A stretch of DNA of 32,000 nucleotides from Candidatus Heimdallarchaeota archaeon B3_Heim (lineage in GTDB: Archaea; Asgardarchaeota; Heimdallarchaeia; Hodarchaeales; Hodarchaeaceae): contig NJBF01000030.1 of NCBI GenBank assembly GCA_003144275.1, forward strand, positions 25,586 to 57,585, read 5' to 3'. The first letter of the stretch is position 1, and the number at the start of each line of letters is the position of its first letter. This document shows, piece by piece, positions 1,126 through 26,004 of the stretch. A program made the position numbers and the translations under genes. The notes beneath the pieces were generated by a model. It did no database searches. It worked only from the letters and a program-made list of their open reading frames with translations, and was not told the origin of the DNA.

Positions 1126-2226
1126 ATGCCCAAAAGGAAACAAAAGTTTATTCATTTAGCTTTTACAACTGCGGAATGTAGACGAATAATTAAAAAAACA
1201 GGGATAAAACGTGTATCACAGAATGCCGCTGTAGCTTTAAATAAACTACTCACATACAAAGCTAGAGAAATAGCTGCTGGAGCAGTTGCCAGAAGTGGTG
1301 AAAGAAATGCTCAAACTGTTTCAGCTGATGACATTACTTATGCAGTTCGTATGGGATCTCCCGTAGCAGGATATGAAGTTGATAGTGCAGCTCCTGTGGT
1401 GCATTATGTTTGGTTTATATCGTCTGCTGGTACCTGCTTGCTTTCTCGCTCATATTCTGGATTAAAATTTCCTGATACTATTTTTGCTGGTCTGGTAACT
1501 GGTATAGTTGATTTGCTGGCTGAGGTTACTGGAAGATTGCTTGATAAAATTACTACAGACGAATTAGTTATTCATATCCGTAGAATAGGAGAAATGACTG
1601 TAGCAGTTATTTGTGATAGTGAGCAAACCGAACCCATTGATGAATTAACGGATTTACTTGCGCTTCGATTTTCAGACGTTTTTACAGAAGAAATTAACCA
1701 AGAAGTAATAGATGTGGGAATATTTGAAGATTTTACACCAGTTTTAGACGCTTTAGTTTCTGGTGCAGGATTGAACATCCCCAAAGGAAGACTGAAAGTA
1801 ATAGGTGAGCAGCAACTACGTCTTACAGATAAACAACTTGAAGAAACTGTCGATGCTGCTGCTTTAAGGCAAGAACTACGTCGTGCGCACGAATCCATCC
1901 AAGATTTTGGATTATTCAGGAGAGAAGTGGACGAAGAAGATTTAACGACTACTGATGTTGATTTGGATTTTGATGAGTCACCAGATGTGTCTGAAATAAA
2001 AGCTGTATTACGTCAAGCGTCGAAAGATATTCGACAAGAGATAAAATCCAATGACATTCCAGAAAATCACGAACTACCAAGTACAGAACAGGTAACTTCG
2101 AAAGACATTAGAGAAGAAGTGGCGAAGGATTTATCTGAAATTATTCAGCTGGAAAGCGAAGAACAGGTGATCAAAAAACCAACAAAGAAGAAAAAGAGAA
2201 AAAAATCACGAAAAAGACGTAAATAG
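1126..2226 (+). CDS. Histone-fold / longin-domain fusion protein with acidic C-terminal region and basic tail
   Basis: aa ~12-76 (FTTAECRRIIKKTGIKRVSQNAAVALNKLL...EIAAGAV...QTVSADDITYAV) align by eye with HMf-type archaeal histones. aa ~91-211 (VHYVWFISSAGTCLLSRSY...IFAGLVTGIVDLLAEV...FEDFTPVLDALV) follow the longin pattern. C-terminus is KKPTKKKKRKKSRKRRK. Confidence 0.8.
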   Translation: MPKRKQKFIHLAFTTAECRRIIKKTGIKRVSQNAAVALNKLLTYKAREIAAGAVARSGERNAQTVSADDITYAVRMGSPVAGYEVDSAAPVVHYVWFISSAGTCLLSRSYSGLKFPDTIFAGLVTGIVDLLAEVTGRLLDKITTDELVIHIRRIGEMTVAVICDSEQTEPIDELTDLLALRFSDVFTEEINQEVIDVGIFEDFTPVLDALVSGAGLNIPKGRLKVIGEQQLRLTDKQLEETVDAAALRQELRRAHESIQDFGLFRREVDEEDLTTTDVDLDFDESPDVSEIKAVLRQASKDIRQEIKSNDIPENHELPSTEQVTSKDIREEVAKDLSEIIQLESEEQVIKKPTKKKKRKKSRKRRK

Positions 2227-2238
2227 AATTCAGTACGT

Positions 2239-4866
2239 TTATAGTAATTTTTCCCACTGTTTTTGCGTAATACCATAAATTTTGAAGACAATTTCATCCA
2301 TAATTCTTTGATTATGGTTAAGGAAAGCGTGATACTTTTCAAGATCTTTTAGGAGGAATGATAGGTTCATTCTAGTAGTTTTAGAAAGAGCTGAGAACTT
2401 TTCTGGATTTTTACAGAAATGGAACAATCTTTTTTGCGAACTAAAAGGGAATACTTCAGAATTGGATTTGACTAACTTCCATATTTTCTCATAAATATTA
2501 GAAACATTGCTCCCAATTTGTATATTTTCTTGCGTTTTAACTTCTAATTGCTTAATTCTTTGAACTTGAAGGTTTGTACTATTTTTTAAGCTAATTATTG
2601 GAAAATGATTCATATCCCTAATTCGAATTTGTGGATATCGATTTCCTTCAGTTCCCGATGTACGAATTATATTTAACTCTTCTCCCAACCAATTCCCAAG
2701 AGCTGATGTAAGTATCCCAACTATCAAATATGGAGAATAAGGTGTTTGGATATTATAGATTGTATGGAGATTCCTCAATCCGAAAAACCCCTTTTCATCA
2801 TAATTTACAATAAATTTTGAAGCAGTTTGACGGACTAATATTTTTGGTTCAGTAAATCTTTCTTTCTCACCTGAAATTAAAAGGACTTCTTTATTTCCAA
2901 CTTTTGAACGATTCAAGTTATTCATTCGAAGATAATCTTCATAATCCTTTGAGAATCTAACGAAGGAATTTTTCATTCCTGAAACCCAAAAAGTTACAAA
3001 AGACTGTGGTAATCCATTAGCTCCATCTATCACTCGATACATATCACTAGATAGCGTATTGGATAGAAAATGAGATTTAAGCATACTTCCATATTCCAAA
3101 CCACAGGAAATCTTTGAGATGTCTCCCAATTTAATGACTACACTATTGATTTGATTAAGAATTTCACGGGTAGCCACTTTTCGGTAAATCTTTAAGATAA
3201 AATTTGGGTGATCACTAAAATGACTTGTGGATTCAATTTTAGGGTCATAATTCAGGTTCTTTTGGCCTAAAAATGATATAGAGTCCTTTTTATGATCCTT
3301 AGAGTTTTCTAATATTAGAATAGATAAGTCTACTACTGCTTGTTTATATTTGTAATTTTCAAGCAAGTAGATCAAAGTATACTTCTCCAATAACGTTTTA
3401 CGTATTTCAATGTACGAAGATAGATCAAGAAAGGAATGATCAATAACAAAACTCACGATCCCATCATTTAAACGTGAAGAATAGCGTAATGCTAAACCAA
3501 GAAACATAATGTAAAGATTATCACGCTTTCCCATGAATTTGGGGATCATTTGTTTGAGGATTTTCCTAATATCAGGGGGTATAACCTTTTGTGAAAATCG
3601 TCCTGATAATGGAATATAGGGGGGATTTGAAAGAATTAAATCATATCTAGGATGAGGAATGTTATTCTTATAATTATTGGACATATGAAGTAAGAAATTC
3701 TTTTTCTGTAAATTATTTAAATTTTCAGGCAAATCATTAGATAGATTAAGGTACAAATTAATAATATTTTTAGAAAAATTTATGATTTTTTCATCAATGT
3801 CAAATCCAAAGAAGGAAGATAAAAATAACTCTTTTCTGAGCTTTAAAAGTGAACTAAAGTGAAGTTGATCTTCGCGTTGGAGGACTTGATTAACTAGCCA
3901 TTCCAATGCTACAATAAGAATCAATCCAGTACCAGAAGCTGGATCTAGAATCTTCAATTTCTTGATGTTGTTGATTGAGGATATCTTGCTAGTTTTTATC
4001 TTATTAAAGGAGTGAGAAACCAATGGAAACGTAAGTTCTAAAGGGGTAAAATATTGACCTCTTAATTTGTCAATATTTAGCTGTAAGGGAGGATATTCAA
4101 GTAGGTGGATTAATGTGAGATCAAGAAGATCTACATAAGATAATTCAACGACTTGTTCAATAAGAATTTTCTTTTGTAGTAAGGCTAAAAAACGTGTAAT
4201 GTCGATATTAGTTGGATGTGTATCACTCTGAAGTTCAATCATTTCAAAATCGTTTAGAGTTTGTGAGTAACTCATAAAAAAGTCATTTGGAGAAGTAAAT
4301 CCTCGTAAACGATCCAATTTAGGAGTATCACCGTTTTTATGTAAACTACTTTTTCGTACAAACTCAATAATCTTTAAAAATACGCTAAAGCCATTTTGAT
4401 ATGATTCTAAACGAATTTTGTCATTATAAACCTCAAGAATCCCTGGGTTAATGAAAATTGAGGCAAGAAGCAGTGACACGAGGTTTTTAGGAATAATCGA
4501 CCAGCAAATAATGAAGTCGTGTGACATTGAAAAGATTAGAGTCTCATTAGTTGAAATGACAATGATCCAATCAGGAATCCCCTGAGTGATCAATTTCTTT
4601 CTAAGAAACTGAATAATTCTCAGATTTTTATAATTAAATAATTCTTGAGCAGAAATATTCGAAATGAGAATCCCCACATGTGATTTAATCCAAAAATTAC
4701 CAATATTCTTTAGATTTTCAGATGGAAAACCGAGTAAATTATTGAAGTTCTTAGCTTCAATATTCTGAATGGTTGCATGAAATTCTGAATTTTGTTCAGA
4801 ATCTGGATTCTCTTTTTCTAATATTAACTGATCCTCAATGAGTTTAATCTGTGCGTTAAGAGGCAT
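2239..4866 (-). CDS. N6-adenine DNA methyltransferase, Eco57I/TaqI-like (gamma class) with C-terminal target-recognition domain
   Basis: Motif X GQYFTP, motif I ILDPASGTG, motif IV NPPY, and TaqI_C-like FTEPKILVRQTA. No clear PD-(D/E)xK nuclease motif in the N-terminus. Confidence 0.88.
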   Translation of the reverse strand: MPLNAQIKLIEDQLILEKENPDSEQNSEFHATIQNIEAKNFNNLLGFPSENLKNIGNFWIKSHVGILISNISAQELFNYKNLRIIQFLRKKLITQGIPDWIIVISTNETLIFSMSHDFIICWSIIPKNLVSLLLASIFINPGILEVYNDKIRLESYQNGFSVFLKIIEFVRKSSLHKNGDTPKLDRLRGFTSPNDFFMSYSQTLNDFEMIELQSDTHPTNIDITRFLALLQKKILIEQVVELSYVDLLDLTLIHLLEYPPLQLNIDKLRGQYFTPLELTFPLVSHSFNKIKTSKISSINNIKKLKILDPASGTGLILIVALEWLVNQVLQREDQLHFSSLLKLRKELFLSSFFGFDIDEKIINFSKNIINLYLNLSNDLPENLNNLQKKNFLLHMSNNYKNNIPHPRYDLILSNPPYIPLSGRFSQKVIPPDIRKILKQMIPKFMGKRDNLYIMFLGLALRYSSRLNDGIVSFVIDHSFLDLSSYIEIRKTLLEKYTLIYLLENYKYKQAVVDLSILILENSKDHKKDSISFLGQKNLNYDPKIESTSHFSDHPNFILKIYRKVATREILNQINSVVIKLGDISKISCGLEYGSMLKSHFLSNTLSSDMYRVIDGANGLPQSFVTFWVSGMKNSFVRFSKDYEDYLRMNNLNRSKVGNKEVLLISGEKERFTEPKILVRQTASKFIVNYDEKGFFGLRNLHTIYNIQTPYSPYLIVGILTSALGNWLGEELNIIRTSGTEGNRYPQIRIRDMNHFPIISLKNSTNLQVQRIKQLEVKTQENIQIGSNVSNIYEKIWKLVKSNSEVFPFSSQKRLFHFCKNPEKFSALSKTTRMNLSFLLKDLEKYHAFLNHNQRIMDEIVFKIYGITQKQWEKLL

Positions 4867-4916: not shown

Positions 4917-6662
4917 CTAATTAGTAGATACTTCTTTTTCTGTTTCAGTTTTAATTTTAGAATAGAAATTACTCGCCAGGTTTCTTATTGTCCTATCTGA
5001 ATCGTGAAGAATAATATGCTCTAATACAGTAAGAATTTCTGCTTGTCTCTCTTCCTCTTCTAAACCTGCTTTCCCTAGTTGTTGAATTGCATCCATTCTT
5101 ATTATATAATTCTTTGAGGTACTCGCTTGCTTCAGTAAATCAATTAAAATGGACCCATTTTCATTTATACTCAATTTTTCCTCAGGGGGTATCATTAAAG
5201 GTAAATCTATCGTTACTTGACATCCTTGGTTGAATCCTTCAGATTCAATTTCGAACAAACCACCATGATCAGTTATTACTTGTTTTGCCAAGAATACTCC
5301 TAAACCTAGTTGACTGGCGGATGAGTGGAATGTCATGAAGGGTTCCCCTATATATTGTAGGTTCTCCTGATTAATTCCAACACCTGTATCCTTACAGGTT
5401 AATCTAATTATTTTATCTTTTTCAATGTTTAATGCAATTTCCACTGTACCATGACCCGTAAATCTTATCGCATTTTCAAAAATATTCCTTAAAGCTTGTA
5501 ACATGCGTATACGATCGACATTGATAACAAAAGGCGTTGTCGGGTATTCAATAACCAAGTGAACTCGGTATCGTTTCAAAATAAATTCAAGTCCGTCAAT
5601 TGCTTGTTGAACAATTGGCACAAAATCCTCTAACATAAGTGTACATTTAAATTTACCCATTCTGACTGCAGCAATGTCATTTAAATCGTTGACAATGGTT
5701 TCTAATTGTGAAAGATTTCGTCCAAACGCAGTTAACAGATTATTTTCCAATATCCCTTTTTCATCATCTGTAATACCATTTACTAATCGTGAATTGTAAA
5801 AATCCAGATGCCCACGAAGATTGCTTATCGGTGTTCGAAGTGTATGCTGGGAAAGTGTAAGAAAGTCGAATTTCATATCTGTTAACTGTTTGACAGGAGT
5901 TAAATCTACCATAATTCCTTGTACTATTGCGGTATTCCCAATATATAGTTTTTTAACGCTAGCCATGACAGGTATCCGAGTACCATCTTTACACAGTAAT
6001 TCTAGCTCTGTTGTTTCATAAGGAGAAACAAACTGTGTATCAATCGTATCTTCATCGATTTTTCCTGTAATTAAATCTCTTTTTGTTTCTAACAAATAAG
6101 CAGCAATTTTAGCTCTGTGTTCGGGAGAAACGAAAAATGTAGGGAGGAACTTCCTCTCTTCAATCTCCTCTTCAGTATATCCTAATTTTTCAATGAATGC
6201 TTGACTATACCAATCGATTATCCCATTCTTGAAGATAAAGAGGAAGTTAGGAGATTTACTAAATAAATCGTGAAATTGTTTTTGTTGTGAATCGAGATCA
6301 GCTCTTATTTGCATAAGCTTCCCAATATGCCGTATAAGGAGTAGGTCATATCTTTCACTAATAGACGAAACTCTTACTTGAATCCAAGTCGTACTACCGT
6401 CTGGTAATAGTGCTTGCCATTCGGATTCCCTGGGAAGGGGAATATCTTTATTTGAAACTGTTCGTGCGAATTTCTCTTTATCTGAAAGAGCAAGGAATTG
6501 AACAAACTGTTCAATAGAAAGGTTTTTGTGAGATGTAGGAATCTTGAGGTCTAACCGTGCTTTTGTATTTGCATAGTAAACTTGTCTATCCTTCAATACA
6601 ACGATTCCAGCAGGCAATTTATCAAGAAAATCTGCATCAAAAGGTGGATCTAGGGAAGTCAC
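4917..6662 (-). CDS. PAS-PAS sensor histidine kinase (HisKA + HATPase_c) with C-terminal HEAT-like helices
   Basis: Two PAS-like segments, H-box SQHTLRTP, N-box NIFENAIRFT, G1 DTGVGI, F-box EPF and G2 QLGLGV. The tail IRMDAIQQLGK...DSDRTIRNLA is HEAT-like. No transmembrane segments, so probably cytoplasmic. Confidence 0.9.
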   Translation of the reverse strand: MTSLDPPFDADFLDKLPAGIVVLKDRQVYYANTKARLDLKIPTSHKNLSIEQFVQFLALSDKEKFARTVSNKDIPLPRESEWQALLPDGSTTWIQVRVSSISERYDLLLIRHIGKLMQIRADLDSQQKQFHDLFSKSPNFLFIFKNGIIDWYSQAFIEKLGYTEEEIEERKFLPTFFVSPEHRAKIAAYLLETKRDLITGKIDEDTIDTQFVSPYETTELELLCKDGTRIPVMASVKKLYIGNTAIVQGIMVDLTPVKQLTDMKFDFLTLSQHTLRTPISNLRGHLDFYNSRLVNGITDDEKGILENNLLTAFGRNLSQLETIVNDLNDIAAVRMGKFKCTLMLEDFVPIVQQAIDGLEFILKRYRVHLVIEYPTTPFVINVDRIRMLQALRNIFENAIRFTGHGTVEIALNIEKDKIIRLTCKDTGVGINQENLQYIGEPFMTFHSSASQLGLGVFLAKQVITDHGGLFEIESEGFNQGCQVTIDLPLMIPPEEKLSINENGSILIDLLKQASTSKNYIIRMDAIQQLGKAGLEEEERQAEILTVLEHIILHDSDRTIRNLASNFYSKIKTETEKEVSTN

Positions 6663-6814: not shown

Positions 6815-7453
6815 ATGAGTCTCGATGAAAAATTAAAATCTTTGGAACTTCAAAGGAATTACAGTGAGATGATTAACGAACTTCGGATAAATGAAAGCGC
6901 TATGACTCTATGGTACGCTAAGCTAAGCTCACTTATGGCCGAAGAACGTCCACAGATAGCTGGAATGTTACAATCGTTAGAAGAAATCTCACAGACAATA
7001 ACAACTCTTCTTAGAAAATGTACAATGTTCATGGATGAACATTTCTCTCCAGTTCCAGTTGAGATTGCAGCATCAACTACCATTAGTGCCCCTACCCCTG
7101 ATTTATCAAAGCGAGAACGCGATGATGTTTTTTCACTTGGCTCATTACGTACCCTAGCTCAGACTTTGCCTCAGAAGGAAATAGATAAGGAAAAAGCACA
7201 ATCAGTTAAATTTTGGTATATTACTGGTGGTGGGAAAAGCGAAGCATTAGACCTTACGTTTTCAGAAAAAGATTATTTTACTAATGTTTTAATATCGGTT
7301 CTCACTCAAATCGAGGGAATAACAGACAATGAAGAGTTCTCTGTATCCCCATTAGGTTTCAATCCTTTACTTCTTCCTCAGTTTGAAAGCTCATTAGATC
7401 AAATTCTTACTTCATATGCGAATGAATTTACCCTCATTAAATTTTATCCTTAA
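6815..7453 (+). CDS. Hypothetical protein (N-terminal coiled coil, C-terminal alpha/beta domain)
   Basis: 212-aa ORF with ATG start filling the gap between the kinase and zupT; no recognised motif. Confidence 0.65.
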   Translation: MSLDEKLKSLELQRNYSEMINELRINESAMTLWYAKLSSLMAEERPQIAGMLQSLEEISQTITTLLRKCTMFMDEHFSPVPVEIAASTTISAPTPDLSKRERDDVFSLGSLRTLAQTLPQKEIDKEKAQSVKFWYITGGGKSEALDLTFSEKDYFTNVLISVLTQIEGITDNEEFSVSPLGFNPLLLPQFESSLDQILTSYANEFTLIKFYP

Positions 7454-7601: not shown

Positions 7602-8402
7602 ATGGATCTAACCCCAGTTATTAATGGTTTGATACTAGCAACTTTAGCTGGATTATCAACCACAATTGGTGCGCTTGGGATTTATTTTATAAAAGCGGAA
7701 AGTAGATTCATTAGTATAGCGATGGGATTCTCTGCTGGTGTAATGATAGGCGTATCTATGCTTGAATTATTACCCTCTGCCCTTTTTGAAATTGGATTAT
7801 TCAAAGCAGGTATCTCATTTATTCTGGGTCTGTTAGCTGTATCGATCCTTGACATTTTAATACCGCATGACTATATGCACGAACATTCCTGTGATGACGA
7901 AGAGTCAAACAGGTTTAATGGAACAAAGAATAGACTAGGACGAACAGGACGACTTGTGGCTGTAGGTATTGCAATTTATAACTTACCAGAAGGATTCATC
8001 ACCCTTTCTGGAGCTTTTTACTCAACAGAGCTGGGAATATTATTAGCAGTCGCGATCTCAATGCATAATATACCAGAGGGGTTATCTGTAGCCGTACCTA
8101 TCTATGCATCAACAAATGATAAGCGAGAAGCTTTCAAAATATCTTTTTTATCTGGTTTAGCAGAACCTTTAGGTGCAATTATAGCTACTGTTGTATTATT
8201 AACTTTCGGGTTGACAACAGATGAATTTATTCAAATGGCATTAGCCTTTGTTGCAGGAATTATGTTATTTATATCTTTAGACGAACTACTACCATCCGCT
8301 AGGGAAACTTGTAAGGAAAATGAAAGTGATTCGCATATAGTTACGCTTGGGATTATTGCAGGGGTTACGGTTATATTCTTGACTTTGGTAGCATTGACTT
8401 AA
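7602..8402 (+). CDS. zupT: ZIP-family divalent metal (zinc) transporter
   Basis: Multiple TM helices, LAGLSTTIG, GFSAGVM, His-rich loop HDYMHEH, YNLPEG and HNIPEG motifs, SGLAEPLG, AGIMLFISLDELLP. Confidence 0.93.
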   Translation: MDLTPVINGLILATLAGLSTTIGALGIYFIKAESRFISIAMGFSAGVMIGVSMLELLPSALFEIGLFKAGISFILGLLAVSILDILIPHDYMHEHSCDDEESNRFNGTKNRLGRTGRLVAVGIAIYNLPEGFITLSGAFYSTELGILLAVAISMHNIPEGLSVAVPIYASTNDKREAFKISFLSGLAEPLGAIIATVVLLTFGLTTDEFIQMALAFVAGIMLFISLDELLPSARETCKENESDSHIVTLGIIAGVTVIFLTLVALT

Positions 8403-9972: not shown

Positions 9973-10131
9973 ATGGCAATGAACCTCAAATTAATGACAT
10001 TGGCTTCAATTATTTCTGGTTTATTAGTACTTACAGTATTGAATGTTGTATTCTTTGTTCCACAAGCGAGTTCATCTTATCATGATTTTCTTTGTCACTT
10101 TTCAGGAGGAACTCTAATTGAAACTGAATAA
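9973..10131 (+). CDS. Small 52-aa membrane or secreted peptide (below the ORF-track cutoff)
   Basis: Manual translation: MAMNLKLMTLASIISGLLVLTVLNVVFFVPQASSSYHDFLCHFSGGTLIETE*. It has a hydrophobic core and overlaps the start of the next gene. Confidence 0.5.
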   Translation: MAMNLKLMTLASIISGLLVLTVLNVVFFVPQASSSYHDFLCHFSGGTLIETE

Positions 10132-11245
10132 TGATACAAATAGCCCCGATCGAAATGGCGAGTCACCTGCTCATATTCCGTGGATTAAACCTGAATTGGT
10201 AAAACGACGGAGAAAGAATCCTTATTTTCAAACAAGTGATTTAGTAATTATTGCATTATTTAGCAGTTTAGGTGGAATTTTTAGTACCTTTATTGGATAT
10301 TTAGCTAATTTATTAAACAGTATATTGGGAATCCCATTCGGAGGAGGTCAAGTTTTAGCTGGTCTTCATATTTTCTGGCTTGTATTCATTTTTCTCCTCA
10401 CAGATAAGAAGGTGGGTGTAGCATTTTCTGCTGGAGTCTTGAAAGGCTTTGTAGAATTTTTTACAGGTAATGCACACGGGTTACTAGTTATTCTCCTCTC
10501 TTCAAGTCAAGGCTTAATCATTGAATTGATTTTAATCCTATTTCTAGGGACAAAAAGAAGGAGTATCATAGCAATAGCTGCTGGATTTGCGGGGTTATCG
10601 AATGTTATTTTACAACAATTGTTATTTTTCAATTCTCAGATACCAATTACTTTCATTGCCTTGATAGGACTAATAAGCTTTATTTCAGGAATTACATTAG
10701 GAGGATTATTCCCTCTTTCAGTGTTTTATATTTTCAATAGATCACCGATTTTACAGTGGAGAAAACCGCTATCGTTATCTCCCAGATATCTAAGGAAAAT
10801 TCAAGCTATTCGGATTAGCATTATTGTGATATTACTTCTCGCAGAAGTCTCTGTCATTGTTTTCTTGATGTCTCAAAATAAATATTCTATAGAAATTACG
10901 GGGGAAGTATATAATCCTTATACATTCTACGTGGGTGACTTCCCTAAAATCACTATTGAAGCTGAGTTAATTGGTGATGTAACTTATGTACCTCCAAAGA
11001 ATTATACTGGTGTACCACTGTACCTTGCAATCGAAAAAGCACAGCCAAGACTTCAAAGCTATTATATACAATTGAGAGCTACTGATGGCTATTCTGTAAG
11101 GTTTAATTCAACTGAAGTAGATAAAAATGATAATATTATTATTTCCTCAGAGGATGGTAGATTAAGAATCGTTGCTGGTCACTATCACGGGAGTTACTGG
11201 ATAAAAAATATTGCCTCTATTGAATTAACTGCTTTACCTTCCTAA
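10118..11245 (+). CDS. ECF transporter S-component fused to a C-terminal molybdopterin-oxidoreductase-like soluble domain
   Basis: About 6 TM helices starting FQTSDLVIIALFSSLGG, directly upstream of ECF ATPase and T genes. The C-terminal ~120 aa (IEITGEV...YTGVPL...ATDGYS...LRIVAGHYHGSYWIKNIASIEL) resemble the Oxidored_molyb fold. GGAGGA SD precedes the TTG start. Confidence 0.8.
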   Translation: MKLNNDTNSPDRNGESPAHIPWIKPELVKRRRKNPYFQTSDLVIIALFSSLGGIFSTFIGYLANLLNSILGIPFGGGQVLAGLHIFWLVFIFLLTDKKVGVAFSAGVLKGFVEFFTGNAHGLLVILLSSSQGLIIELILILFLGTKRRSIIAIAAGFAGLSNVILQQLLFFNSQIPITFIALIGLISFISGITLGGLFPLSVFYIFNRSPILQWRKPLSLSPRYLRKIQAIRISIIVILLLAEVSVIVFLMSQNKYSIEITGEVYNPYTFYVGDFPKITIEAELIGDVTYVPPKNYTGVPLYLAIEKAQPRLQSYYIQLRATDGYSVRFNSTEVDKNDNIIISSEDGRLRIVAGHYHGSYWIKNIASIELTALPS

Positions 11246-11323
11246 TCAACCATAAAATCTTTATAGTTCCGAAATAGGAAAAGAAATTTGATTAACCGTT
11301 GGTATGAATAATTTCGACTAACA

Positions 11324-12820
11324 ATGGATTCTAATCAGATAATCATCCAATTGAATGATGTAAACTTTCAATATTCTGATTCTCAACCCAAAGTTATTTC
11401 AAATATGTGTTTAAAGATTCAAAAGGCAGAATTTATCGTAATTACAGGAAAGAGTGGTAGTGGAAAATCAACACTGGCATTAATATTGAGTGGATTTATT
11501 CCGCATCTAGTAGGGGGAAAATTCGAAGGTGAAGTTTCTTATCAAGGTATAGAAACCCAGACATTAACCTTAGGTGAAATTAGTCAACTAGCTGGACTAG
11601 TCCATCAAGATCCAGAAAACCAAATTGTAACCTCAAACGTTTTGGAAGAACTTGCGTTCGGGCCAGAAAACCTAAACCTCTCCAAGGACGAGATTACTAA
11701 ACGAATAAAGTTTTGCTTATCAGCAACGAATTTACATGAATTCATTTCCAGGTCCACCGATGAGCTTTCGGGAGGAGAAAAGCAAAGAGTAGCCCTTGCC
11801 TCTTTACTTGCAATGGGAGGATCTGTGTTAATTCTAGATGAACCAACATCATATCTAGATTTGGTAAATAGGACACAAGTACTGAAAACACTTCAGAGCT
11901 TAAATTTATTACAAGAAATGACAATAATTGTTATAGATCATCAACCAGAAATTTATAAGGATCTATTAACAAGACTTATCGTCCTTGATGAAGGTAGGAT
12001 TAGTGGAGATTATATTAAGGATGAGATCGATTTTTTTCCATACCAAGTTCCATTAAAATCTCTAGAAAGTATCCGAGACCTTTCCGCTATCAAACCAATG
12101 ACGAATGTAATTAAAACAAAGAACTACAATGTTTTTATTAAAAAAAATAGGATTCTATCCAATATATCTTTGAACCTCTATTCTGGTCTAATTTATGGGA
12201 TAATTGGTCGGAATGGATCAGGAAAAACTACATTTGCTAACTCTCTTTTAAATTTGCTTATAACAAAAGGAGATGTATCAATTTTAGGCGAAAATTCAAC
12301 AAAAATCCCTACTTATAAGTTAGCAAAGGATTGTGGATTGATCTTTCAAAATCCTAATCATCAAATTTTCGAACAAACTGTAGAGAAAGAATTACTTTTC
12401 GCACCTTTAAACCTGAATTTAGATTCTCAAATTACTGCTGCAAAAGTAAATCAACTTCTATGTGATTCATCATTACAACAATATACAAATTATCCTCCAT
12501 TCGGTTTATCATTTGGTGAGAAACGAAGATTGACGGTTATTTCCGTAGATGTTTATACACCATCGATATTAATTTTGGACGAACCCTTCATCGGTCAGGA
12601 TCGCTATAATTTTGAATTTATATTAAAAATCTTAGAGAAGAGAAAAAAGAATGGATTAATATCAATTATTATCTCTCATCGAAAAGAATTATTTAATTTG
12701 GTTGATAAGTTCATTGTTTTCGATGAGGGGCGTCTAATAGCAGAAGGAAGTCCAGAGGATCTTGTACCATTACTCAAGAACAAGCTATTATATCCGATAT
12801 CACACGAGGTTTTGTGGTGA
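11324..12820 (+). CDS. ecfA: ECF transporter duplicated ATPase (EcfA-A' fusion)
   Basis: Two ABC cassettes: GKSGSGKST / LSGGEKQR / LILDEP and GRNGSGKTT / FQNP / LSFGEKRR / LILDEP. Confidence 0.93.
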   Translation: MDSNQIIIQLNDVNFQYSDSQPKVISNMCLKIQKAEFIVITGKSGSGKSTLALILSGFIPHLVGGKFEGEVSYQGIETQTLTLGEISQLAGLVHQDPENQIVTSNVLEELAFGPENLNLSKDEITKRIKFCLSATNLHEFISRSTDELSGGEKQRVALASLLAMGGSVLILDEPTSYLDLVNRTQVLKTLQSLNLLQEMTIIVIDHQPEIYKDLLTRLIVLDEGRISGDYIKDEIDFFPYQVPLKSLESIRDLSAIKPMTNVIKTKNYNVFIKKNRILSNISLNLYSGLIYGIIGRNGSGKTTFANSLLNLLITKGDVSILGENSTKIPTYKLAKDCGLIFQNPNHQIFEQTVEKELLFAPLNLNLDSQITAAKVNQLLCDSSLQQYTNYPPFGLSFGEKRRLTVISVDVYTPSILILDEPFIGQDRYNFEFILKILEKRKKNGLISIIISHRKELFNLVDKFIVFDEGRLIAEGSPEDLVPLLKNKLLYPISHEVLW

Positions 12821-13614
12821 AAGATAATTACATCCCTGTAAATTCGGATTGGCCCTCTTTTACAACCCCAACTAGAACTATGAATCCAGTAATAAAATTT
12901 CTAGCAATTACATTAATAGCAATTTACTATTTTATAATTACTGATTTAATTAGAATGTATTCTCTGATTTTTATTGTTCTAATTTACTATAATTTCAAAT
13001 CATTCCCATATCAGGTGTCAAAACCTAAATATAGGTTTTTGATAATATTTTCCCTTTTGATCTTCTTAGTTCAAGCATTTGCAAACAACCAGGGTAAATT
13101 AGTATTTTATCTAATTCCAAGGATAATTGAGGTAGGTCCTTTCATTCCTATTCATGAAAACGGGTTATTTCTTGGTTTGTTACTTGTGGGGCGGTTTTGG
13201 GGGGTAATAACAATATCATGGGTATTTATTGACTCGACTAATCCATTTGACTTTGCACAGTCACTAACACAATTAAAAGTCCCATATCGGCTCGCTTACT
13301 CTCTTAGCCTTGCTCTACGTTTTACGCCAGTGTTAAACAATGAAATAATGACTATTCGAAATGCTCAACAAACTCGTGGATTAAATACCAACCCAAATTC
13401 GCTAAAAGGGACGTTCAACCTGTTAAAATTTACTTTATTCCCAATAATAAGTTCAACATTAAGTAGGATCAAAGATATAACATTAAGTATGGAAGGAAGA
13501 GCATTCGGGTTATACGTTGATCGAACCCCTCTAAAAGAGATACCTTTTCGAATTTCTGACATGATGCTATACCTAATGTTAATGATGGTACTTTGGTTAC
13601 TTTTGATTATCTAG
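12814..13614 (+). CDS. ecfT: ECF transporter transmembrane T component
   Basis: CbiQ/EcfT motifs LALRFTPVL, AQQTRG and MEGRAF. Overlaps the ATPase stop codon. Confidence 0.92.
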   Translation: MVKDNYIPVNSDWPSFTTPTRTMNPVIKFLAITLIAIYYFIITDLIRMYSLIFIVLIYYNFKSFPYQVSKPKYRFLIIFSLLIFLVQAFANNQGKLVFYLIPRIIEVGPFIPIHENGLFLGLLLVGRFWGVITISWVFIDSTNPFDFAQSLTQLKVPYRLAYSLSLALRFTPVLNNEIMTIRNAQQTRGLNTNPNSLKGTFNLLKFTLFPIISSTLSRIKDITLSMEGRAFGLYVDRTPLKEIPFRISDMMLYLMLMMVLWLLLII

Positions 13615-14445: not shown

Positions 14446-16134
14446 TTGGATATAGAACTTATACAAGTTACGGGAACGAAGGGGATAATCGAGGGAATGA
14501 AAACCTCTCGTCGTAAGAGTGAAATCGAAAATATTCCTCAAAAAGTGTTTAGCTGGGGACATTGGTCTGTACTGGAACATAGTTCGATCACGGTAAAAAT
14601 TTCGAATATAAGTAGAGCCAGTTGTTATGATGAGGCTACACAAGTCTTGACTTCTTGTGGATGGAAAAATTTTTTCGACTTGAGGAAATCTGATGATATG
14701 TATACTTTGAATTCAAATAATCACACCATTGAGCTACACAAACCGTCTAGTATCATTCAAGAGAGATACAAGGGGAAGATGTACTCTCTTAAATCGTCAA
14801 AGATCGACCTTCTCGTCACACCAAACCATCGGATGTACATCTATCCATTTGATACCCAAAGAGCAAAGAAGGCCGGATCTAAAGGAAGGGGAAATCCCTC
14901 TCTCTGGGAGATAAGAACTGCCTCAGAAATCATAGGAAAAAGAAAAGCGTATAAAAAGACGGGAAAATTGAGAAGAAAACCAACATCCACCGTTAGAATT
15001 AAAGGAATGGTTCGAAAACACGGAAGAGGAAATACAGAATTAAAACCTCTAAAATTAAAAACTAACGATTTCCTAGAATTTTTGGGCTATTATCTTAGTG
15101 AAGGAAATATACATCATTCGAATGGAAGTGGTTATGATGTTGTTTTACACCAAGGTAATGAGAAGATTAGAAATAAAATGTACAACGTTATCAAAAGACT
15201 TGGATTCAAACCAAGAATTGTCACACCTAAGGAAAGAGTACCTCATGTAAGAACGTCATCATACCAGTTATATCATTATCTAAAGAAGCTAGGGAAAGCA
15301 AAATCGAAATTCATCCCTCGTGATATATTAAATTCAATCAATAAGGAACAAGCGAATATTTTGTTAAATTCGCTGATGGAGGGTGATGGATCTAAGTGGC
15401 ATGGAGCATGGCGATATTATACCATTTCAGAACAATTAGCAGATGATGTACAAGAGCTCACCCTATTAGCAGGACTTGCTGCCAATATAGCTATCTCAGA
15501 TAGATCTGGTAAAGGACATAGATGGAAAGATATGTACATAAAGTATAATTATCCAAGTTATGTTGTAAAAATCTTGACACGTCAAAACAATCCATTAGTG
15601 AATACGCATGGGAAAATAAATGATACATGGGTTGATTACGACGGAAATGTGTTTTGTGTTACTGTTCCAAATGGGATACTATATGTCAGAAGGAACGGAG
15701 TTCCTGTATGGTGCGGAAATTCCCATCAACTTGTGAGACACAGGGTTGGAAACTCGTATACCCAAGAATCACAGAGATATTTTGATCCTCTCACCGATCC
15801 TGATTGGTATGTTATTCCTCCAAGAATTAAAGAGAACAACGTTCTGTTAGATAAGTATCGGAAAGCTAGAAAGGAGGAGGCTAACGAGTACAGATTGTAT
15901 CGAGAGAATGGAATACCCAAGGAGGATGCGCGGTTCTGTTTACCCAATGCCTGTAAGACCGTCGTTACATGGACTTTCAATATGAGTAGCTTAATCTGGT
16001 TTCTGGAAATGCGAAAAACTAAAGCCGCTCAATGGGAAATCAGGATACTTGCAGAAAAAATTTACGATCTTGTAATGAGCTTACCAGAATGGGCTGAGTT
16101 CCTACAAAATTGGGAACCTGGGCAAAGAAGATAA
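14446..16134 (+). CDS. thyX: Flavin-dependent thymidylate synthase ThyX interrupted by an intein
   Basis: GHWSVLEH, SRAS|intein|SHQLVRHR..SYTQESQRY, EDARFCLP and AQWEIR. Predicted spliced product is 196 aa. Confidence 0.93.
   Translation: MDIELIQVTGTKGIIEGMKTSRRKSEIENIPQKVFSWGHWSVLEHSSITVKISNISRASCYDEATQVLTSCGWKNFFDLRKSDDMYTLNSNNHTIELHKPSSIIQERYKGKMYSLKSSKIDLLVTPNHRMYIYPFDTQRAKKAGSKGRGNPSLWEIRTASEIIGKRKAYKKTGKLRRKPTSTVRIKGMVRKHGRGNTELKPLKLKTNDFLEFLGYYLSEGNIHHSNGSGYDVVLHQGNEKIRNKMYNVIKRLGFKPRIVTPKERVPHVRTSSYQLYHYLKKLGKAKSKFIPRDILNSINKEQANILLNSLMEGDGSKWHGAWRYYTISEQLADDVQELTLLAGLAANIAISDRSGKGHRWKDMYIKYNYPSYVVKILTRQNNPLVNTHGKINDTWVDYDGNVFCVTVPNGILYVRRNGVPVWCGNSHQLVRHRVGNSYTQESQRYFDPLTDPDWYVIPPRIKENNVLLDKYRKARKEEANEYRLYRENGIPKEDARFCLPNACKTVVTWTFNMSSLIWFLEMRKTKAAQWEIRILAEKIYDLVMSLPEWAEFLQNWEPGQRR
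14623..15720 (+). mobile_element. 366-aa intein with LAGLIDADG homing endonuclease in thyX
   Basis: Starts CYDEATQVLT (block A), has block B VTPNHRM, endonuclease motifs FLGYYLSEG and LLNSLMEGDG, ends VTVPNGILYVRRNGVPVWCGN, and is followed by a Ser +1. Confidence 0.93.
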
Positions 16135-18395: not shown

Positions 18396-18977
18396 ATGAA
18401 TAAGAAAAAAAATTCCTCAAAAGAGGAAAAACAACTTAAGAAGGTTAAAAAGAGGAAAAAACAGATTAATTTTTTGTTAACTGAAGAACAGGAGAATGTC
18501 CTCGATGATTTGGTTGAAGAATATTCTAGAAATCGAACAGACTTTTTTGTTACAGCCATCAACTTCTTTAAGCATAATCCAGAGCTGTATGGAAGAGGAA
18601 AAGTAGCAATACCTACTGAATCTATTACTAAAAAAGATTTAGAGGAACTAGAAACCAATTTATTTGAGAGACTTCAATATCAGATCCAGACCCTTCAAAT
18701 GATGACTCAATCCATTGTTGATAGAGAGGAAACAGAAGAGAAACAAGAAAAACTTACAGAAATTGAGCAGACTCTCTTTAATTTTAAAGGGTTGAAACGG
18801 TTAGATACGTATGATAAAATTGAGGGATTTCTGACAAAACAATTTCCTCAATGGGAAACAGAACTGACTGTAGAGAAAATCTATTATGATTTAGTAATAA
18901 AATTCCTTCAACAAGGAGATGTTATCTATAACACTCGCACTAAAAAGTTAAAATGGAGTGTGTCAACTGATGACTAA
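18396..18977 (+). CDS. Ribbon-helix-helix (CopG-like) regulator with coiled coil and possible winged-helix C-terminus
   Basis: KKQINFLLTEEQENVLDDLVEEYSRNRTDFFVTAI is an RHH pattern. AAGGAG SD. Overlaps the integrase start. Confidence 0.7.
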   Translation: MNKKKNSSKEEKQLKKVKKRKKQINFLLTEEQENVLDDLVEEYSRNRTDFFVTAINFFKHNPELYGRGKVAIPTESITKKDLEELETNLFERLQYQIQTLQMMTQSIVDREETEEKQEKLTEIEQTLFNFKGLKRLDTYDKIEGFLTKQFPQWETELTVEKIYYDLVIKFLQQGDVIYNTRTKKLKWSVSTDD

Positions 18978-19914
18978 AAGGAGAAAACTAAATTTTGCTA
19001 ATCCTCTAATAGAGGAATTTATTCAAGCAAAAAAATCAGAAAGACGACCAAGCACACTTAATCGTTATCGGTATGTGTTGTATGAATTTGACAGGTGGTT
19101 ACAAGCGCGTGGAAAATCCCTCTCAAGTATTCTCGTTGAAGATTTAGGTAGCTTCATAGCAGAGAAACAAGAGAAAGGTCTTTCCTCAAATACCGTAGTA
19201 GTCAAACTATGGGCAATTAAGGGTTTTGCTAAATGGTTGTGGTATAGAGACAAGTTAACAGAGAAAAATCACAAAGCATTTGATGAGTATTATCCTGACC
19301 TTCCCAAAAATGAGGATACTCGAAGTGCGTTGAAACCACAAGAGGAAAAACTCATCCTAAAGAAATTAGGGAATCAAATGTTTCGAATGATGTTTTGGGT
19401 AGGGAACAATTATGGGCTTCGGTGCTCGGAATTTTCAACTTTAATAGTGCAGAATATTGATCTAGAGAATCAAAAACTTCAAGTTCATGGAAAAGGCAAT
19501 AAATACCGAAGAGTAGGGATTCCTAAGGGACATATTCAGACATGGCAAGACTGGCTGACTACTAGAGAGGCGTATCACTTACCCCATGACCATGTGTTCT
19601 TCAGTAGCAATGGAAAACCAACTCACAGGACAATTCAACGCTACTTCAATAAAATGAGTGAACAGGTGTATCCCCTACCTGAGGGGATTTCGAGGGATGA
19701 AGTAATGCAGTTCAAGAAAGATAATTGGTTTACTCCCCACATCTTGAGATTTACCTTTGCTACAAAATTATACCTAGGTGGGATGCCATTATTAGATATA
19801 TCGAAGGCACTAGGACACAATTCCATTCGGACAACCCAAATCTATCTCCGCATTGACGAGCAGAAAGCCCATGAAAGCTATCTAAACAATGCTGAGAAAA
19901 TTCTAGGGAGTTAA
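18970..19914 (+). CDS. Tyrosine recombinase / integrase (XerC/D-like)
   Basis: N-terminal SAM-like domain and a full catalytic set: R (GLRCSE), K (GKGNK), HxxR (HILR), H (LGH), Y (TTQIY). ATG 18970 overlaps the upstream gene. Confidence 0.95.
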   Translation: MTKRRKLNFANPLIEEFIQAKKSERRPSTLNRYRYVLYEFDRWLQARGKSLSSILVEDLGSFIAEKQEKGLSSNTVVVKLWAIKGFAKWLWYRDKLTEKNHKAFDEYYPDLPKNEDTRSALKPQEEKLILKKLGNQMFRMMFWVGNNYGLRCSEFSTLIVQNIDLENQKLQVHGKGNKYRRVGIPKGHIQTWQDWLTTREAYHLPHDHVFFSSNGKPTHRTIQRYFNKMSEQVYPLPEGISRDEVMQFKKDNWFTPHILRFTFATKLYLGGMPLLDISKALGHNSIRTTQIYLRIDEQKAHESYLNNAEKILGS

Positions 19915-23219: not shown

Positions 23220-23293
23220 ATTAATATCACCTCTCATTTTCTTTTGTAGATCTCTTAACTGATTAATATAAGTGATTGTTTGTGATATTTTAT

Positions 23294-25395: not shown

Positions 25396-25965
25396 TTGGA
25401 GGTTGCAATGATGGGTGAAAGAGGAATTCCACCAATCCATATTGTTGAAAAGGAAATCGAAAGAATTTGGACACAAGAAATTAAACAAGATTTTCTACAA
25501 CGGAAAATCATGTATTTTGAAGTCACGCTACAAGGTGTTTTTTACCATCACTTTCGATCATTATTTGATAAATATCCACGATTAAGAATTTTCCTTGAGT
25601 ATAAAGATGATGAGTCAGGGCGGACATATGATTTAGTAGTGCAAAAATCACCCAAAAATGAGACTTGGAATCAACAAGACCATTGGATGAAGGATATTGG
25701 TGATTACTGGATTGTAATGGAGTTCAAATTTTTACCTAATTTTTTCGAAAAAGCAGCTCAAGAAGATATTGCTAAGTTTCAAGCTCTCAAAAAGCATCAT
25801 GAATCAATTCAACGGGTTTATTTTATAACCATTGAAACCAATGTTAATATTCTTCGCTATATTAACTATTGTGGACATTGGTTTGAGAAATTTTATCGCG
25901 AGGCGCGGGGAGTCCCAAATAATGAAGACTGGGACTTCTTCATCCTAAAACCCGAGGAGGAATGA
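25396..25965 (+). CDS. Restriction-endonuclease-like PD-(D/E)xK protein
   Basis: EVTLQ (helix Glu), TYDLVV, VMEFK and DIAKF pattern. The start may be ATG 25408 or 25411. Confidence 0.68.
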   Translation: MEVAMMGERGIPPIHIVEKEIERIWTQEIKQDFLQRKIMYFEVTLQGVFYHHFRSLFDKYPRLRIFLEYKDDESGRTYDLVVQKSPKNETWNQQDHWMKDIGDYWIVMEFKFLPNFFEKAAQEDIAKFQALKKHHESIQRVYFITIETNVNILRYINYCGHWFEKFYREARGVPNNEDWDFFILKPEEE

Positions 25966-26004
25966 GCTTATGCCATTTCCTAAATTACTTACGGTCGGAT
26001 AACA

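Follow-up and report, generated by a model that had tools for sequence, protein, structure and literature searches.

Does a single archaeal gene join a histone fold to a longin domain, and what might such a protein do? The question arises near the start of the window, the whole stretch of 32,000 nucleotides analysed here, from Candidatus Heimdallarchaeota archaeon B3_Heim. An open reading frame on the forward strand (P0001) begins with an ATG at position 1126 and continues without interruption to 2226. According to the ORF list and its translation, the product has 366 aa, arranged as a histone fold, a predicted longin domain, helices and a polybasic tail. A sequence-only reading had proposed one uninterrupted frame at 1126-1760. 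The start and the open frame are as it described, but the end lies at 2226, and the C-terminal 155 aa missed by its coverage of aa 1-211 hold two conserved helices and the polybasic tail. An antisense ORF of 108 aa at 1572..1898, overlapping the most conserved coding part, was rejected as spurious.

A conserved fusion gene of Hodarchaeales

Full-length orthologues were present in 19 of the 22 genomes of the genus and in 2/2 other genomes of the order, and a search of 376 further Asgard genomes yielded none. We identified 66 homologous clusters with 53-96% identity over 80-100% of the length, and the same architecture recurred in assemblies from NCBI, JGI, ENA and Logan, where the longest contig measured 3.2 Mb. 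Remote full-length versions, including HeimC3_22820 of LC_3, had 27-38% identity. The histone–longin match is far beyond chance, and the fusion is a real conserved gene of Hodarchaeales. That two genes were wrongly joined during assembly or gene calling has a negligible probability: no point in its support was found, and it is contradicted by the uninterrupted frame, the independent sources of the clusters, the genome counts and the remote full-length versions. The recurrence of one architecture across clusters and genomes shows that the fusion is no assembly chimera. Among public sequencing runs, no RNA run was listed for the window; parts of it occurred only in DNA runs, from marine sediment and cold seeps, with a best share of words of 0.49.

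The architecture is already known from the literature. Hocher & Warnecke 2024 (PMC10919886, Genome Biol Evol) devoted one sentence to Hodarchaeales histone folds "fused to a Roadblock/LC7 domain", so the architecture put forward in the sequence-only reading had in fact been catalogued. Theirs is very probably the same family as the window's gene, because the other PF00808 matches listed for the order's 24 genomes lie in frames of only 67-158 aa. Their description is without the C-terminal helices, the polybasic tail and the losses of histone residues, all of which are described here. Our literature search returned no paper combining longin, histone fold and archaea. Schwab 2024 (PMC11390915), a catalogue of prokaryotic histones, makes no mention of longin, Roadblock or Heimdall, and the fusion is not mentioned in a 2026 Asgard chromatin preprint or in a 2026 structural-modelling paper.

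Predicted structure of the second domain

The second domain (aa 91-215, 1396..1770, forward strand, as are all parts of the gene) was delimited from AF2 and VIA. An AF2 model of aa 86-226 (pLDDT 88, pTM 0.83) has the topology β1-β2-α1-β3-β4-β5-α2-α3 by DSSP. VIA-align matched this model to Fuzzy LD1 (Z 14.6, 122 aa, rmsd 2.3), Trs23/TRAPPC4 (Z 14.3), VAMP7 (Z 13.9), Sec22b (Z 13.7) and Mon1 (Z 12.8), and solved longin domains overall spanned Z 12-14.6 over 120-126 residues (model range 6-130). Foldseek searches of the PDB and Swiss-Prot models returned AP σ/μ, δ/ζ-COP, TRAPPC1/4, SRα and Mon1/Ccz1, with a probability of 1.00 for AP σ, COPI ζ/δ, TRAPP and Mon1/Ccz1. These results agree with the longin domain that had been proposed at aa ~91-211. 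Matches at the level of sequence were faint: the TRAPPC1/Bet5 profile matched the longin part weakly (E 0.002), and Pfam gave no longin match for the window's protein. In other family members, Pfam matches below cut-off were to Fuz_longin_1 (7), Longin (5), Clat_adaptor_s (4) and SRP-alpha_N (2). A sequence search of aa 85-366 against the PDB returned only HST2 at chance level (E 0.33), and an ESM Atlas feature search with the whole protein gave no usable match.

Judged by the predicted fold, the second domain is a longin and not a Roadblock domain, an assignment that is new relative to the earlier literature. The α-β-β-α-β-β-β order of Roadblock/LC7 with its N-terminal helix is absent from the model, which has two helices after β5. 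The only helix ahead of β1 is histone α3, set apart from it by a disordered linker. A longin SNARE of the Ykt6/Sec22/VAMP7 kind, the hallmark of which is an unbroken SNARE motif, ~53 aa long, that leads into a membrane anchor, was also rejected. There was no Synaptobrevin or SNARE match in Pfam, the only helices are at 235-260 and 286-308 with a disordered acidic linker between them, and the C-terminus is polybasic, not a hydrophobic membrane anchor. The GAP-type longins FLCN, NPRL2 and SMCR8 carry a GP motif at the start of β2 (PMC12290439). The fusion has S-G-G-T-C at this place, with no proline and with G102, T103 and C104 invariant, and was not assigned to this type; these three proteins were not among the best 50 VIA matches listed, and a relationship to them may still exist.

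Conservation peaks in this domain. Mean pairwise identity is 77.9% in the longin, the most conserved part of the protein, versus 57.6% in the histone fold, as expected if the longin holds a conserved partner. A near-invariant stretch around SYSGLxFPDTIFxGLxTGIxDLxxEVTGR spans aa 107-137, and R137, which lies in the predicted dimer interface, is invariant across the family including its most distant members. GAP-type longins have a catalytic arginine finger close to the axis between the paired longins, a role for which R137 may be a candidate. No larger fusions pointing to a partner were found when aa 85-310 were compared with proteins of 642-2000 aa, which is weak evidence.

The partner need not be a GTPase. 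The protein could be a DNA-bound regulator whose longin has a sensory or oligomerising role towards another protein or a ligand, like that in the longin–winged-helix proteins which this genome also encodes. Two longin paralogues in this genome (211 and 213 aa) have C-terminal regions resembling TrmB/HTH_27, the related metagenomic proteins P0083 and P0085 match HTH_5 and TrmB, and in Atlas clusters of Asgard longins, 52% of the members carry TrmB and 50% carry HTH_47. However, all of these winged-helix matches fall under the Pfam cut-offs. Moreover, to our knowledge, nearly all characterised longin dimers of such type (TRAPP, Mon1-Ccz1, Fuzzy-Inturned, AP/COPI, SRX) work with small GTPases. 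We consider a GTPase-free regulator unlikely.

C-terminal helices and polybasic tail

Beyond the longin, a linker (aa 216-234, 1771..1827) with invariant I218 and P219 in the alignment leads to an amphipathic helix (aa 235-262, 1828..1911; AF2 helix 235-260) that has 72% mean identity and is kept even in the most distant family members. A variable acidic linker (aa 263-285, 1912..1980; pLDDT <50, 36% identity) separates it from a second conserved helix (aa 286-308, 1981..2049), for which the AF2 pLDDT is ~84 and identity is 66.5%. There follows a variable, mostly acidic segment with a helix in the AF2 model (aa 309-347, 2050..2166), placed with the help of the identity table. The protein ends in a polybasic K/R tail (aa 348-366, 2167..2223) with a net charge of +14, as judged from the alignment and charge table. 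Such a tail was present in 28/28 aligned homologues at net charges of +12 to +59; its charge is conserved and its sequence is not. In some homologues, it consists of KKPxKK-type repeats and reaches 138 aa. Despite this tail, the whole protein has a net charge of about -5, because the longin (-14) and middle regions (aa 216-347, -16) are strongly acidic.

The tails are long and contain neither hydrophobic residues nor lipidation motifs. Their composition resembles that of DNA-binding tails of the histone, H1 and HU type, and a tailed histone in the same genome has an N-terminal tail of the KKPAKK type.

Histone fold

The histone fold occupies aa 15-77 (1168..1356), with helices α1 15-24, α2 32-59 and α3 67-77 in the AF2 model. 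It is preceded by a short N-terminal tail (aa 1-14, 1126..1167) that begins MPKRKQK, is basic in the window's protein and has a mean pairwise identity of 33%. A linker (aa 78-90, 1357..1395) with pLDDT <50 at aa 80-83 and a mean identity of 47% connects it to the longin. Pfam PF00808 matched aa 16-74 (E 5.5e-8, 33.4 bits versus a cut-off of 21.4), and NCBIfam archaea_histone scored 47.6 bits, slightly below its cut-off of 50. In a phmmer search of the PDB, query residues 16-75 aligned with residues 6-65 of HMfB (1a7w, E 6.2e-7), gapless over 60 residues. The histone fold that had been read from the letters alone at aa ~12-76 is thereby confirmed, and the HMfB alignment reproduces its motifs RII, RVS, EIA..A and T...DDI..AV.

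Using HMfB numbering from the gapless alignment, we counted residues across 28 homologues. Among the DNA-contact and L1 residues, R19 was kept in 27/28, K13 in 24/28 and S21 in 26/28; G16 (27/28), D59 (28/28) and the R52 equivalent were also kept. The R19 position was R or K in 16/16 sequences that included the most distant members (23-34% identity). The R10 position was basic in only 11/28, and the L2 DNA-contact pair was frequently replaced, with E/D for K53 in 21/28 and E for T54 in 14/28. At R10, K13, R19, K53 and T54, the residues in the window's protein are R, K, R, Q and T. Its L2 is canonical-like with T54, and the net charge of its histone fold, +11, exceeds those of two canonical histones encoded in this genome (+5 and +6). 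In the majority of homologues, which have an acidic L2, the corresponding charge is only 0 to +4.

Positions of the tetramer interface have changed as well. H49 is E in 22/28 homologues and H in none, L62 is L in none of the 28, which carry Q, R, K, Y, H or F there, and the window's protein has R in place of L46. The fold retains its hydrophobic core. Given the change of H49 to E and of L62 to polar residues, a tetramer or hypernucleosome interface is not expected.

A protein altered in this way might use its histone fold for dimerisation only, as in SOS, TAFs and the Lokiarchaeal Rab-GTPase histones. It would then be a cytosolic or membrane-associated GTPase regulator whose tail has acidic lipids and not DNA as its ligand, with a possible contribution from the histone domain. 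The acidic L2 of most members, the lost tetramer residues, the stronger constraint on the longin than on the histone part and a net-acidic protein between two basic ends all fit such a reading. There are also precedents in the lipid-binding histone domain of SOS, cited by Schwab et al. 2024, and in the Lokiarchaeal Rab-GTPase–histone fusions (PMC11390915). Nevertheless, an L1 arginine or lysine persists in every member however divergent, accompanied by K13 and S21, and the long tails, which expand as KKPxKK repeats, have a composition like that of the genome's tailed histone. On balance, this reading strikes us as possible but rather unlikely.

Homodimer model

Predicted as a homodimer, the protein reached an ipSAE of 0.54 (0.52-0.58 in three runs) versus 0.01 for the best control; of 30 proteins whose solved structures are pairs, 20 attain the ipSAE mark, as does 1 of 23 whose solved structures are single chains. 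Agreement of contacts between runs was 84% or higher, and partner pLDDT was at least 72. Confident contacts fell into two regions. The first covers aa 12-74 and includes 42:42, the α2 crossing of a histone handshake. The second covers aa 113-147 and comprises α1 plus a symmetric strand pairing at 142:142 and 143:143. The model thus supports a homodimer that would join at two places, by a handshake of the histone folds and by an α1/β3 interface of the longins, and its score may reflect that the predictor has learned histone and longin/Roadblock dimers from solved structures.

Loss of the H49/L62-type interface with retention of the hydrophobic core would also suit a capstone or chromatin-boundary histone. 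In this role, the fusion would form a heterodimer with a canonical Hodarchaeal histone and end hypernucleosomes, and its longin would block stacking or bridge two ends. Possible partners exist in the same genome, which has seven further histone-fold genes (five plain ones of 67-74 aa, one tailed and one divergent) and a doublet. Capping of hypernucleosomes by histone variants is also current in the field, as in the model figure of bioRxiv 10.1101/2025.05.24.653377. However, the homodimer model fits the histone and longin interfaces together with high confidence, and a domain serving only to block stacking would not be expected to be nearly as conserved as the longin, which makes a capstone distinctly unlikely.

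Genomic neighbourhood and candidate partners

The fusion gene is convergent with a gene on the reverse strand (2239..4866) for an N6-adenine DNA methyltransferase-like protein of 875 aa, with an Eco57I/PglX-type MTase core and TaqI_C in Pfam. This gene directly adjoins the fusion gene in 8 of 12 related loci and lies within 5 kb in 2 more; the adjacency is kept within the genus and absent in order-level relatives. As a defence system it was rejected, since PADLOC and NCBIfam gave weak generic MTase, PglX and MAD2 matches far below cut-offs, and we treat it as context only. No conserved operon partner was found across the 12 loci, an upstream GatB/GatE-like gene being present in only 4 of them.

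The genome contains 46 Ras-superfamily matches, none on the contig of the fusion gene. No GTPase was a conserved neighbour; one lies two genes from the fusion gene at the LC_3 locus only. The sequence-only reading had suggested heterodimerisation with a histone–GTPase fusion, which finds no support here: the 46 Ras-family matches and the histone matches never fall together, no PF00808 match lies in a GTPase-sized frame in the genome, and the model supports a homodimer. Its proposed search for co-occurring histone-fold small GTPases likewise came up empty in this genome, and Rab-GTPase histones have been reported from Lokiarchaeota only (PMC11390915). Asgard longins fused to Arf/Ras GTPases were seen in an Atlas cluster and have been described previously (PMC10933270).

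Proposed function

We tentatively favour a non-polymerising, polyanion-bound and probably DNA-bound dimer, in which a small GTPase would dock on a platform formed by the longin pair. Two independent dimerisation modules would make the protein a constitutive homodimer. Its histone folds would pair by handshake, and loss of the tetramer residues would leave a single non-polymerising histone dimer. The L1 arginine, with a serine two residues on, the α1 lysine and the polybasic tail would most likely anchor this dimer on DNA. The longins would pair via α1 and the edge strand β3 into a continuous sheet with a two-helix platform. Longin and Roadblock dimers such as TRAPPC1/C4, Mon1-Ccz1, Fuzzy-Inturned and MglB dock a small GTPase on such a platform. 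A GTPase-binding or GTPase-regulating platform would thereby be placed on the nucleoid, and the suggestion of the sequence-only reading that the protein may tether a GTPase regulator to DNA is plausible. Also in favour of this explanation, the nearest relatives of the longin outside the fusion have C-terminal winged-helix (TrmB/HTH) regions, so this longin subfamily appears to have been joined repeatedly to DNA-binding modules.

The analysis establishes the folds, how they are conserved and where the gene occurs, and modelling supports the homodimer with its two interfaces. Both DNA binding and GTPase binding or regulation by the fusion are what we infer. If so, R29 and the tail should mediate polyanion binding, and the invariant α1 region should hold a partner, for which the 46 small GTPases of the genome are candidates. 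The acidic L2 of most homologues, the net-acidic protein and the lack of a GTPase neighbour count against this explanation, as does the fact that some longins, e.g., those of SNAREs, work without a GTPase.

A more ambitious version holds that a longin-type GTPase regulator is fixed to the nucleoid by its histone-fold dimer, so that one of the many Asgard small GTPases is switched locally at DNA in a non-homologous prokaryotic counterpart of chromatin-bound RCC1 and Ran. We consider this improbable as a whole. If true, it would provide a spatial cue meaning "here is the chromosome" before the nucleus, in the order proposed to be closest to eukaryotes. Should the partner prove to be a GTPase and the anchor DNA, it would be the earliest example of GTPase control localised to chromatin to be described in a prokaryote. 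Histone and longin modules are physically in one protein that is nearly universal in the order and strongly constrained. A one-line mention in the literature is here turned into testable statements concerning the longin, the non-polymerising homodimer, R29 and the tail, and the α1 partner.

Comparison with known systems

Canonical archaeal histones (HMfB 1a7w/5t5k and Hodarchaeal HHoB) resemble the fusion in fold, in the R-V-S of L1, in K13 and G16 and in the R52-D59 pair. They differ in length (~70 versus 366 aa) and in the K-T pair of L2, which is acidic in most fusion members. TRAPPC1/Bet5–TRAPPC4/Trs23, Mon1–Ccz1 LD1, Fuzzy–Inturned LD1 and HPS1 (BLOC-3) share the fold of the fusion's longin (Z 11.6-14.6 over ~122-126 residues), and α1/β3 pairing is the mode of the TRAPPC1–TRAPPC4, Mon1–Ccz1, Fuzzy–Inturned and HPS1 longin dimers. 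However, the GTPase-acting longin dimers are heterodimers, whereas the fusion is a predicted homodimer with a single longin, not a tri-longin, and has no TRAPPC3/Bet3 partners in cis.

The Roadblock dimers MglB and LAMTOR2 have a related α/β core (Z 11.6-11.8 over ~100 residues by VIA) and, as homodimeric GTPase platforms, are like the predicted fusion dimer. In contrast, the order of their secondary structures is circularly shifted relative to the fusion's longin: the alignment skips their N-terminal helix (chain range 26-138) and leaves α3 of the fusion unmatched (model range 4-107).

Lokiarchaeal Rab-GTPase histones and SOS join a histone fold to parts of small-GTPase signalling, as proposed for the fusion. 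The former carry a GTPase and SOS a Ras-GEF catalytic module, whereas the fusion carries a longin. Their histones are of the α3/face-to-face type or doublets, whereas the fusion has an HMf-type fold and is found in another Asgard class than the Lokiarchaeal proteins. RCC1, the Ran GEF on nucleosomes, is a β-propeller that binds histones, has no histone fold itself and shows no homology to the fusion; if our favoured explanation holds, the fusion would resemble it by functional analogy only, as a chromatin-anchored GTPase regulator that marks the place of the DNA.

A conserved histone–longin fusion

The fusion gene is a single unbroken ORF of 366 amino acids at window positions 1126..2226 of the forward strand. 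The sequence-only reading gave its extent as 1126-1760; the start was correct, but this interval covers only the first 211 residues. Region borders within the protein were set by homologue alignment, a full-length AF2 model and a per-region count of mean pairwise identity. A short variable N-tail (aa 1-14, 33% identity) precedes the histone fold (aa 15-77, 57.6%), from which a disordered linker (aa 78-90, 47%) leads to the longin domain (aa 91-215, 77.9%). After a further linker (aa 216-234, 57%) come a conserved helix (aa 235-262, 72%), a variable acidic segment (aa 263-285, 36%), a second conserved helix (aa 286-308, 66.5%), a helix-containing segment that is variable and mostly acidic (aa 309-347, 29%), and a polybasic tail of net charge +14 (aa 348-366). 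A 108-aa antisense ORF (1572-1898, reverse strand) within the most conserved part of the gene was rejected as spurious; its conservation extends no further than near-identical copies of the sense gene.

A word-indexed search of NCBI, JGI, ENA and Logan assemblies (contigs up to 3.2 Mb) recovered 66 clusters with identities of 53-96%; almost all are full length, and most are labelled Hodarchaeales/Heimdallarchaeota. Exhaustive HMMER searching added stand-alone longin relatives and remote full-length versions at 27-38% identity, including HeimC3_22820 of LC_3, a genome now assigned to Hodarchaeales (bioRxiv 10.1101/2025.05.24.653377). When 400 Asgard genomes were searched with a profile, 19 of the 22 members of the window's genus had the full-length fusion, a total that includes the genome from which the window comes and a gene divided between two contig ends; the order's two remaining genomes have it too. 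Completeness is 87, 71 and 93% for the three members of the genus that lack it. Among these 400 genomes no full-length fusion occurred outside the order, other families of the phylum giving only separate longin or ordinary 69-aa histone matches. A search for larger fusions among proteins of 642-2000 aa found none. The joining of both folds in one ORF, as proposed from the sequence, is genuine and conserved, and it is confined to one order.

The second domain has a longin fold

No Pfam match was obtained for the second domain. Folded alone with AF2 and 34 relatives, it yielded a confident model (pLDDT 88, pTM 0.83) whose elements run β1-β2-α1-β3-β4-β5-α2-α3, as in longins. Its VIA-align Z scores were 14.6 with Fuzzy LD1, 14.3 with Trs23/TRAPPC4, 13.9 with VAMP7, 13.7 with Sec22b and 12.8 with Mon1, each match comprising 120-126 residues and spanning model residues 6-130. 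In contrast, the Roadblock proteins MglB and LAMTOR2 scored 11.6-11.8 over only ~100 residues, the alignment omitting their N-terminal helix and α3 of the model. Foldseek with the full model, and against Swiss-Prot models, returned the same families. The family profile weakly matched TRAPPC1/Bet5 (E 0.002), and family members gave sub-threshold matches to Fuz_longin_1, Longin, Clat_adaptor_s, SRP-alpha_N and Sybindin; Robl_LC7 was absent from the 25 families they matched most often. Fold order, structural matches and weak sequence signals together bear out the original longin assignment.

Within this genome, the longin domain's nearest relatives outside the fusion family, of 211 aa (L022:1501-2136, contig C19) and 213 aa (L023:1501-2142, contig C35), combine an N-terminal longin, with G-R-P where β2 begins, and a C-terminal region resembling TrmB/HTH_27 below threshold. 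Two metagenomic relatives (P0083 and P0085) have sub-threshold HTH_5 and TrmB matches, and in Atlas clusters of Asgard longins TrmB and HTH_47 match 52% and 50% of members, others carrying V4R or Arf/Ras domains. All winged-helix matches are sub-threshold yet recurrent, which suggests a longin subfamily repeatedly joined to DNA-binding modules and GTPases. Longin–winged-helix proteins seem to recur among Asgards, and the papers examined did not describe this architecture. In a further 243-aa longin paralogue (L025:1429-2160, contig C47), the N-terminal longin signature is weak and the additional C-terminal half is unassigned.

Residues kept and lost in the histone fold

PF00808 matched aa 16-74 with E 5.5e-8, exceeding its gathering threshold, while the NCBIfam archaeal histone model fell slightly below its cut-off (47.6 vs 50 bits). 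A gapless alignment of aa 16-75 with the canonical archaeal histone HMfB (1a7w; E 6.2e-7) reproduced every histone motif initially noted. We counted residues in 28 homologues in this HMfB register. Conserved positions were K13 (24/28), G16 (27/28), R19 (27/28), S21 (26/28), R52 (24/28) and D59 (28/28); R19 was R or K in all 16 sequences of the set with the most remote members. The H49 position is E in 22 of 28 homologues and H in none, and that of L62 is Q, R, K, Y, H or F throughout, never L. At K53, E or D occurs in 21 of 28, and at T54, E in 14 of 28. In HMfB, H49 and L62 form the dimer-dimer contact in the four-helix bundle, and R10, K13, R19, K53 and T54 contact DNA. The window's protein belongs to a subclade (7/28) with a canonical-like L2 (RKTV; AQTV in the window), whose histone folds carry a net charge of +6 to +11, compared with 0 to +4 in most other homologues and +5 and +6 in two canonical histones of the same genome. 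Judging from these residues, the fold can presumably still dimerise and probably contacts a polyanion through L1 and α1, but should not polymerise.

Besides the fusion, the genome carries five plain histones, a separate histone whose lysine-rich N-terminal tail is of KKPAKK type (L004:1420-1692, contig C36), a divergent histone and a doublet (two folds in 142 aa; L003/L008, contig C27). The presence of a doublet and a tailed histone agrees with a published account of Hodarchaeales (PMC10919886).

A predicted homodimer with a basic tail

We modelled two copies of aa 1-225 with a 28-row alignment and three controls. The homodimer reached an ipSAE of 0.54 (runs 0.52, 0.58, 0.54), compared with 0.01 for the best control; the ipSAE mark is attained by 20 of 30 solved same-chain pairs and 1 of 23 solved single chains. 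Contacts agreed between runs by at least 84%, with partner pLDDT of at least 72. One confident block (aa 12-74) includes 42:42, where the α2 helices cross in the histone handshake. The other (aa 113-147) sets α1 against α1 with symmetric strand pairing (142:142, 143:143). Dimers of longin and Roadblock proteins with known structures pair in this mode, so the model's success may partly reflect memory of those structures; it supports a homodimer but does not show it. A role as hypernucleosome capstone would proceed via heterodimers of the fold, and we regard it as quite improbable.

A near-invariant stretch (aa 107-137) spans the predicted longin interface. Within it, the invariant polar residues D117, T118, D129 and E133 lie outside the named contacts and may offer a partner surface. 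R137, invariant family-wide, falls in the predicted interface region.

Both C-terminal helices, which match no known family, are conserved even in remote members. All 28 aligned members have a polybasic tail, variable in sequence but retaining its charge (+12 to +59); some tails extend to about 60-138 aa, two with KKPxKK- or SKPAPKR-type repeats. A low-complexity K/P/A/T composition lacking hydrophobic residues is what DNA-binding tails typically show, as in H1, mycobacterial HU and tailed archaeal histones. This likeness, together with the KKPAKK-type tail on a histone of the same genome, favours DNA over membrane as the putative anchor, without proving it. Our leading, still tentative reading is a non-polymerising homodimer that would be anchored on DNA by its histone L1/α1 sites and basic tail, its longin pair providing a candidate platform to which a small GTPase could bind. 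We consider less likely a regulator at the membrane or in the cytosol whose histone fold serves solely for dimerisation.

Genomic neighbourhood

A GatB/GatE-like gene lies upstream of the fusion gene in divergent orientation. Downstream and convergent is an 875-aa N6-adenine DNA methyltransferase-like gene (2239-4866, reverse strand), whose product has SAM-binding DPxxGxG and NPPY motifs, a TaqI_C domain and a 260-aa N-terminus of no known family. Across the genus it keeps this convergent position: of 12 related loci, 8 have it directly beside the fusion gene and two more within 5 kb, even at 33-35% methyltransferase and 57% fusion identity; order-level relatives lack it beside the fusion gene. 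Accompanying it are a PAS histidine kinase (4917-6662, reverse strand) and a 212-aa protein of no known family (6815-7453, forward strand). No restriction partner or defence-system match was found for the methyltransferase. Because the genes are convergent, they do not form an operon, and their adjacency is unexplained synteny.

Small GTPase genes are not among the conserved neighbours of the fusion gene; the genome's 46 Ras-superfamily matches lie elsewhere. LC_3 has a 183-aa Arf/Ras-type GTPase (L038:5827-6378) two genes upstream of HeimC3_22820. This proximity may be chance, as the genome is GTPase-rich and the other loci examined do not show it. A further reading, a DNA-bound regulator involving no GTPase, we judge improbable.

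Elsewhere in the window, a ThyX (Thy1) gene (14446-16134, forward strand) matches Pfam in two stretches flanking LAGLIDADG_3 (aa 212-283) and looks like an intein-containing thymidylate synthase. A tyrosine recombinase (Phage_integrase; 18958-19914, forward), several intervening ORFs of no known family (21240-23237, 23692-24975, 25396-26430) and a DDE transposase (26580-27776, forward) possibly constitute an integrated mobile element. An ECF-type transporter cluster (10118-13614, forward) comprises an ABC_cobalt-domain membrane component, a double ABC ATPase and CbiQ, and a ZIP metal transporter lies at 7602-8402.

Comparison with described systems

The sequence-only reading, which knew of no described histone–longin fusion, named an earlier catalogue entry as grounds for refutation, and such a description exists. 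A review mentions Hodarchaeales histone folds "fused to a Roadblock/LC7 domain" (Hocher & Warnecke 2024, PMC10919886). Among the PF00808 matches listed across the 24 genomes of the order, frames other than the fusion family measure 67-158 aa, so that sentence almost certainly refers to the family described here. The histone–longin architecture is therefore already in the literature under a neighbouring domain name, mislabelled and functionally blank. The fusion goes unmentioned in Schwab 2024, a 2025 HHoB cryo-EM preprint, a 2026 preprint on Asgard chromatin and Tran 2024, which treats GTPases, Roadblock and longin proteins of Asgard archaea. It is also absent from a 2025 paper on longin GAPs and from two structural surveys of 2026.

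The initial interpretation, a GTPase regulator tethered to DNA or brought to a histone–GTPase fusion, is partly supported. By analogy, the DNA-anchored homodimer that we tentatively favour might act as a chromatin-anchored GTPase switch comparable to RCC1-Ran, a specific likeness to which we attach little probability.
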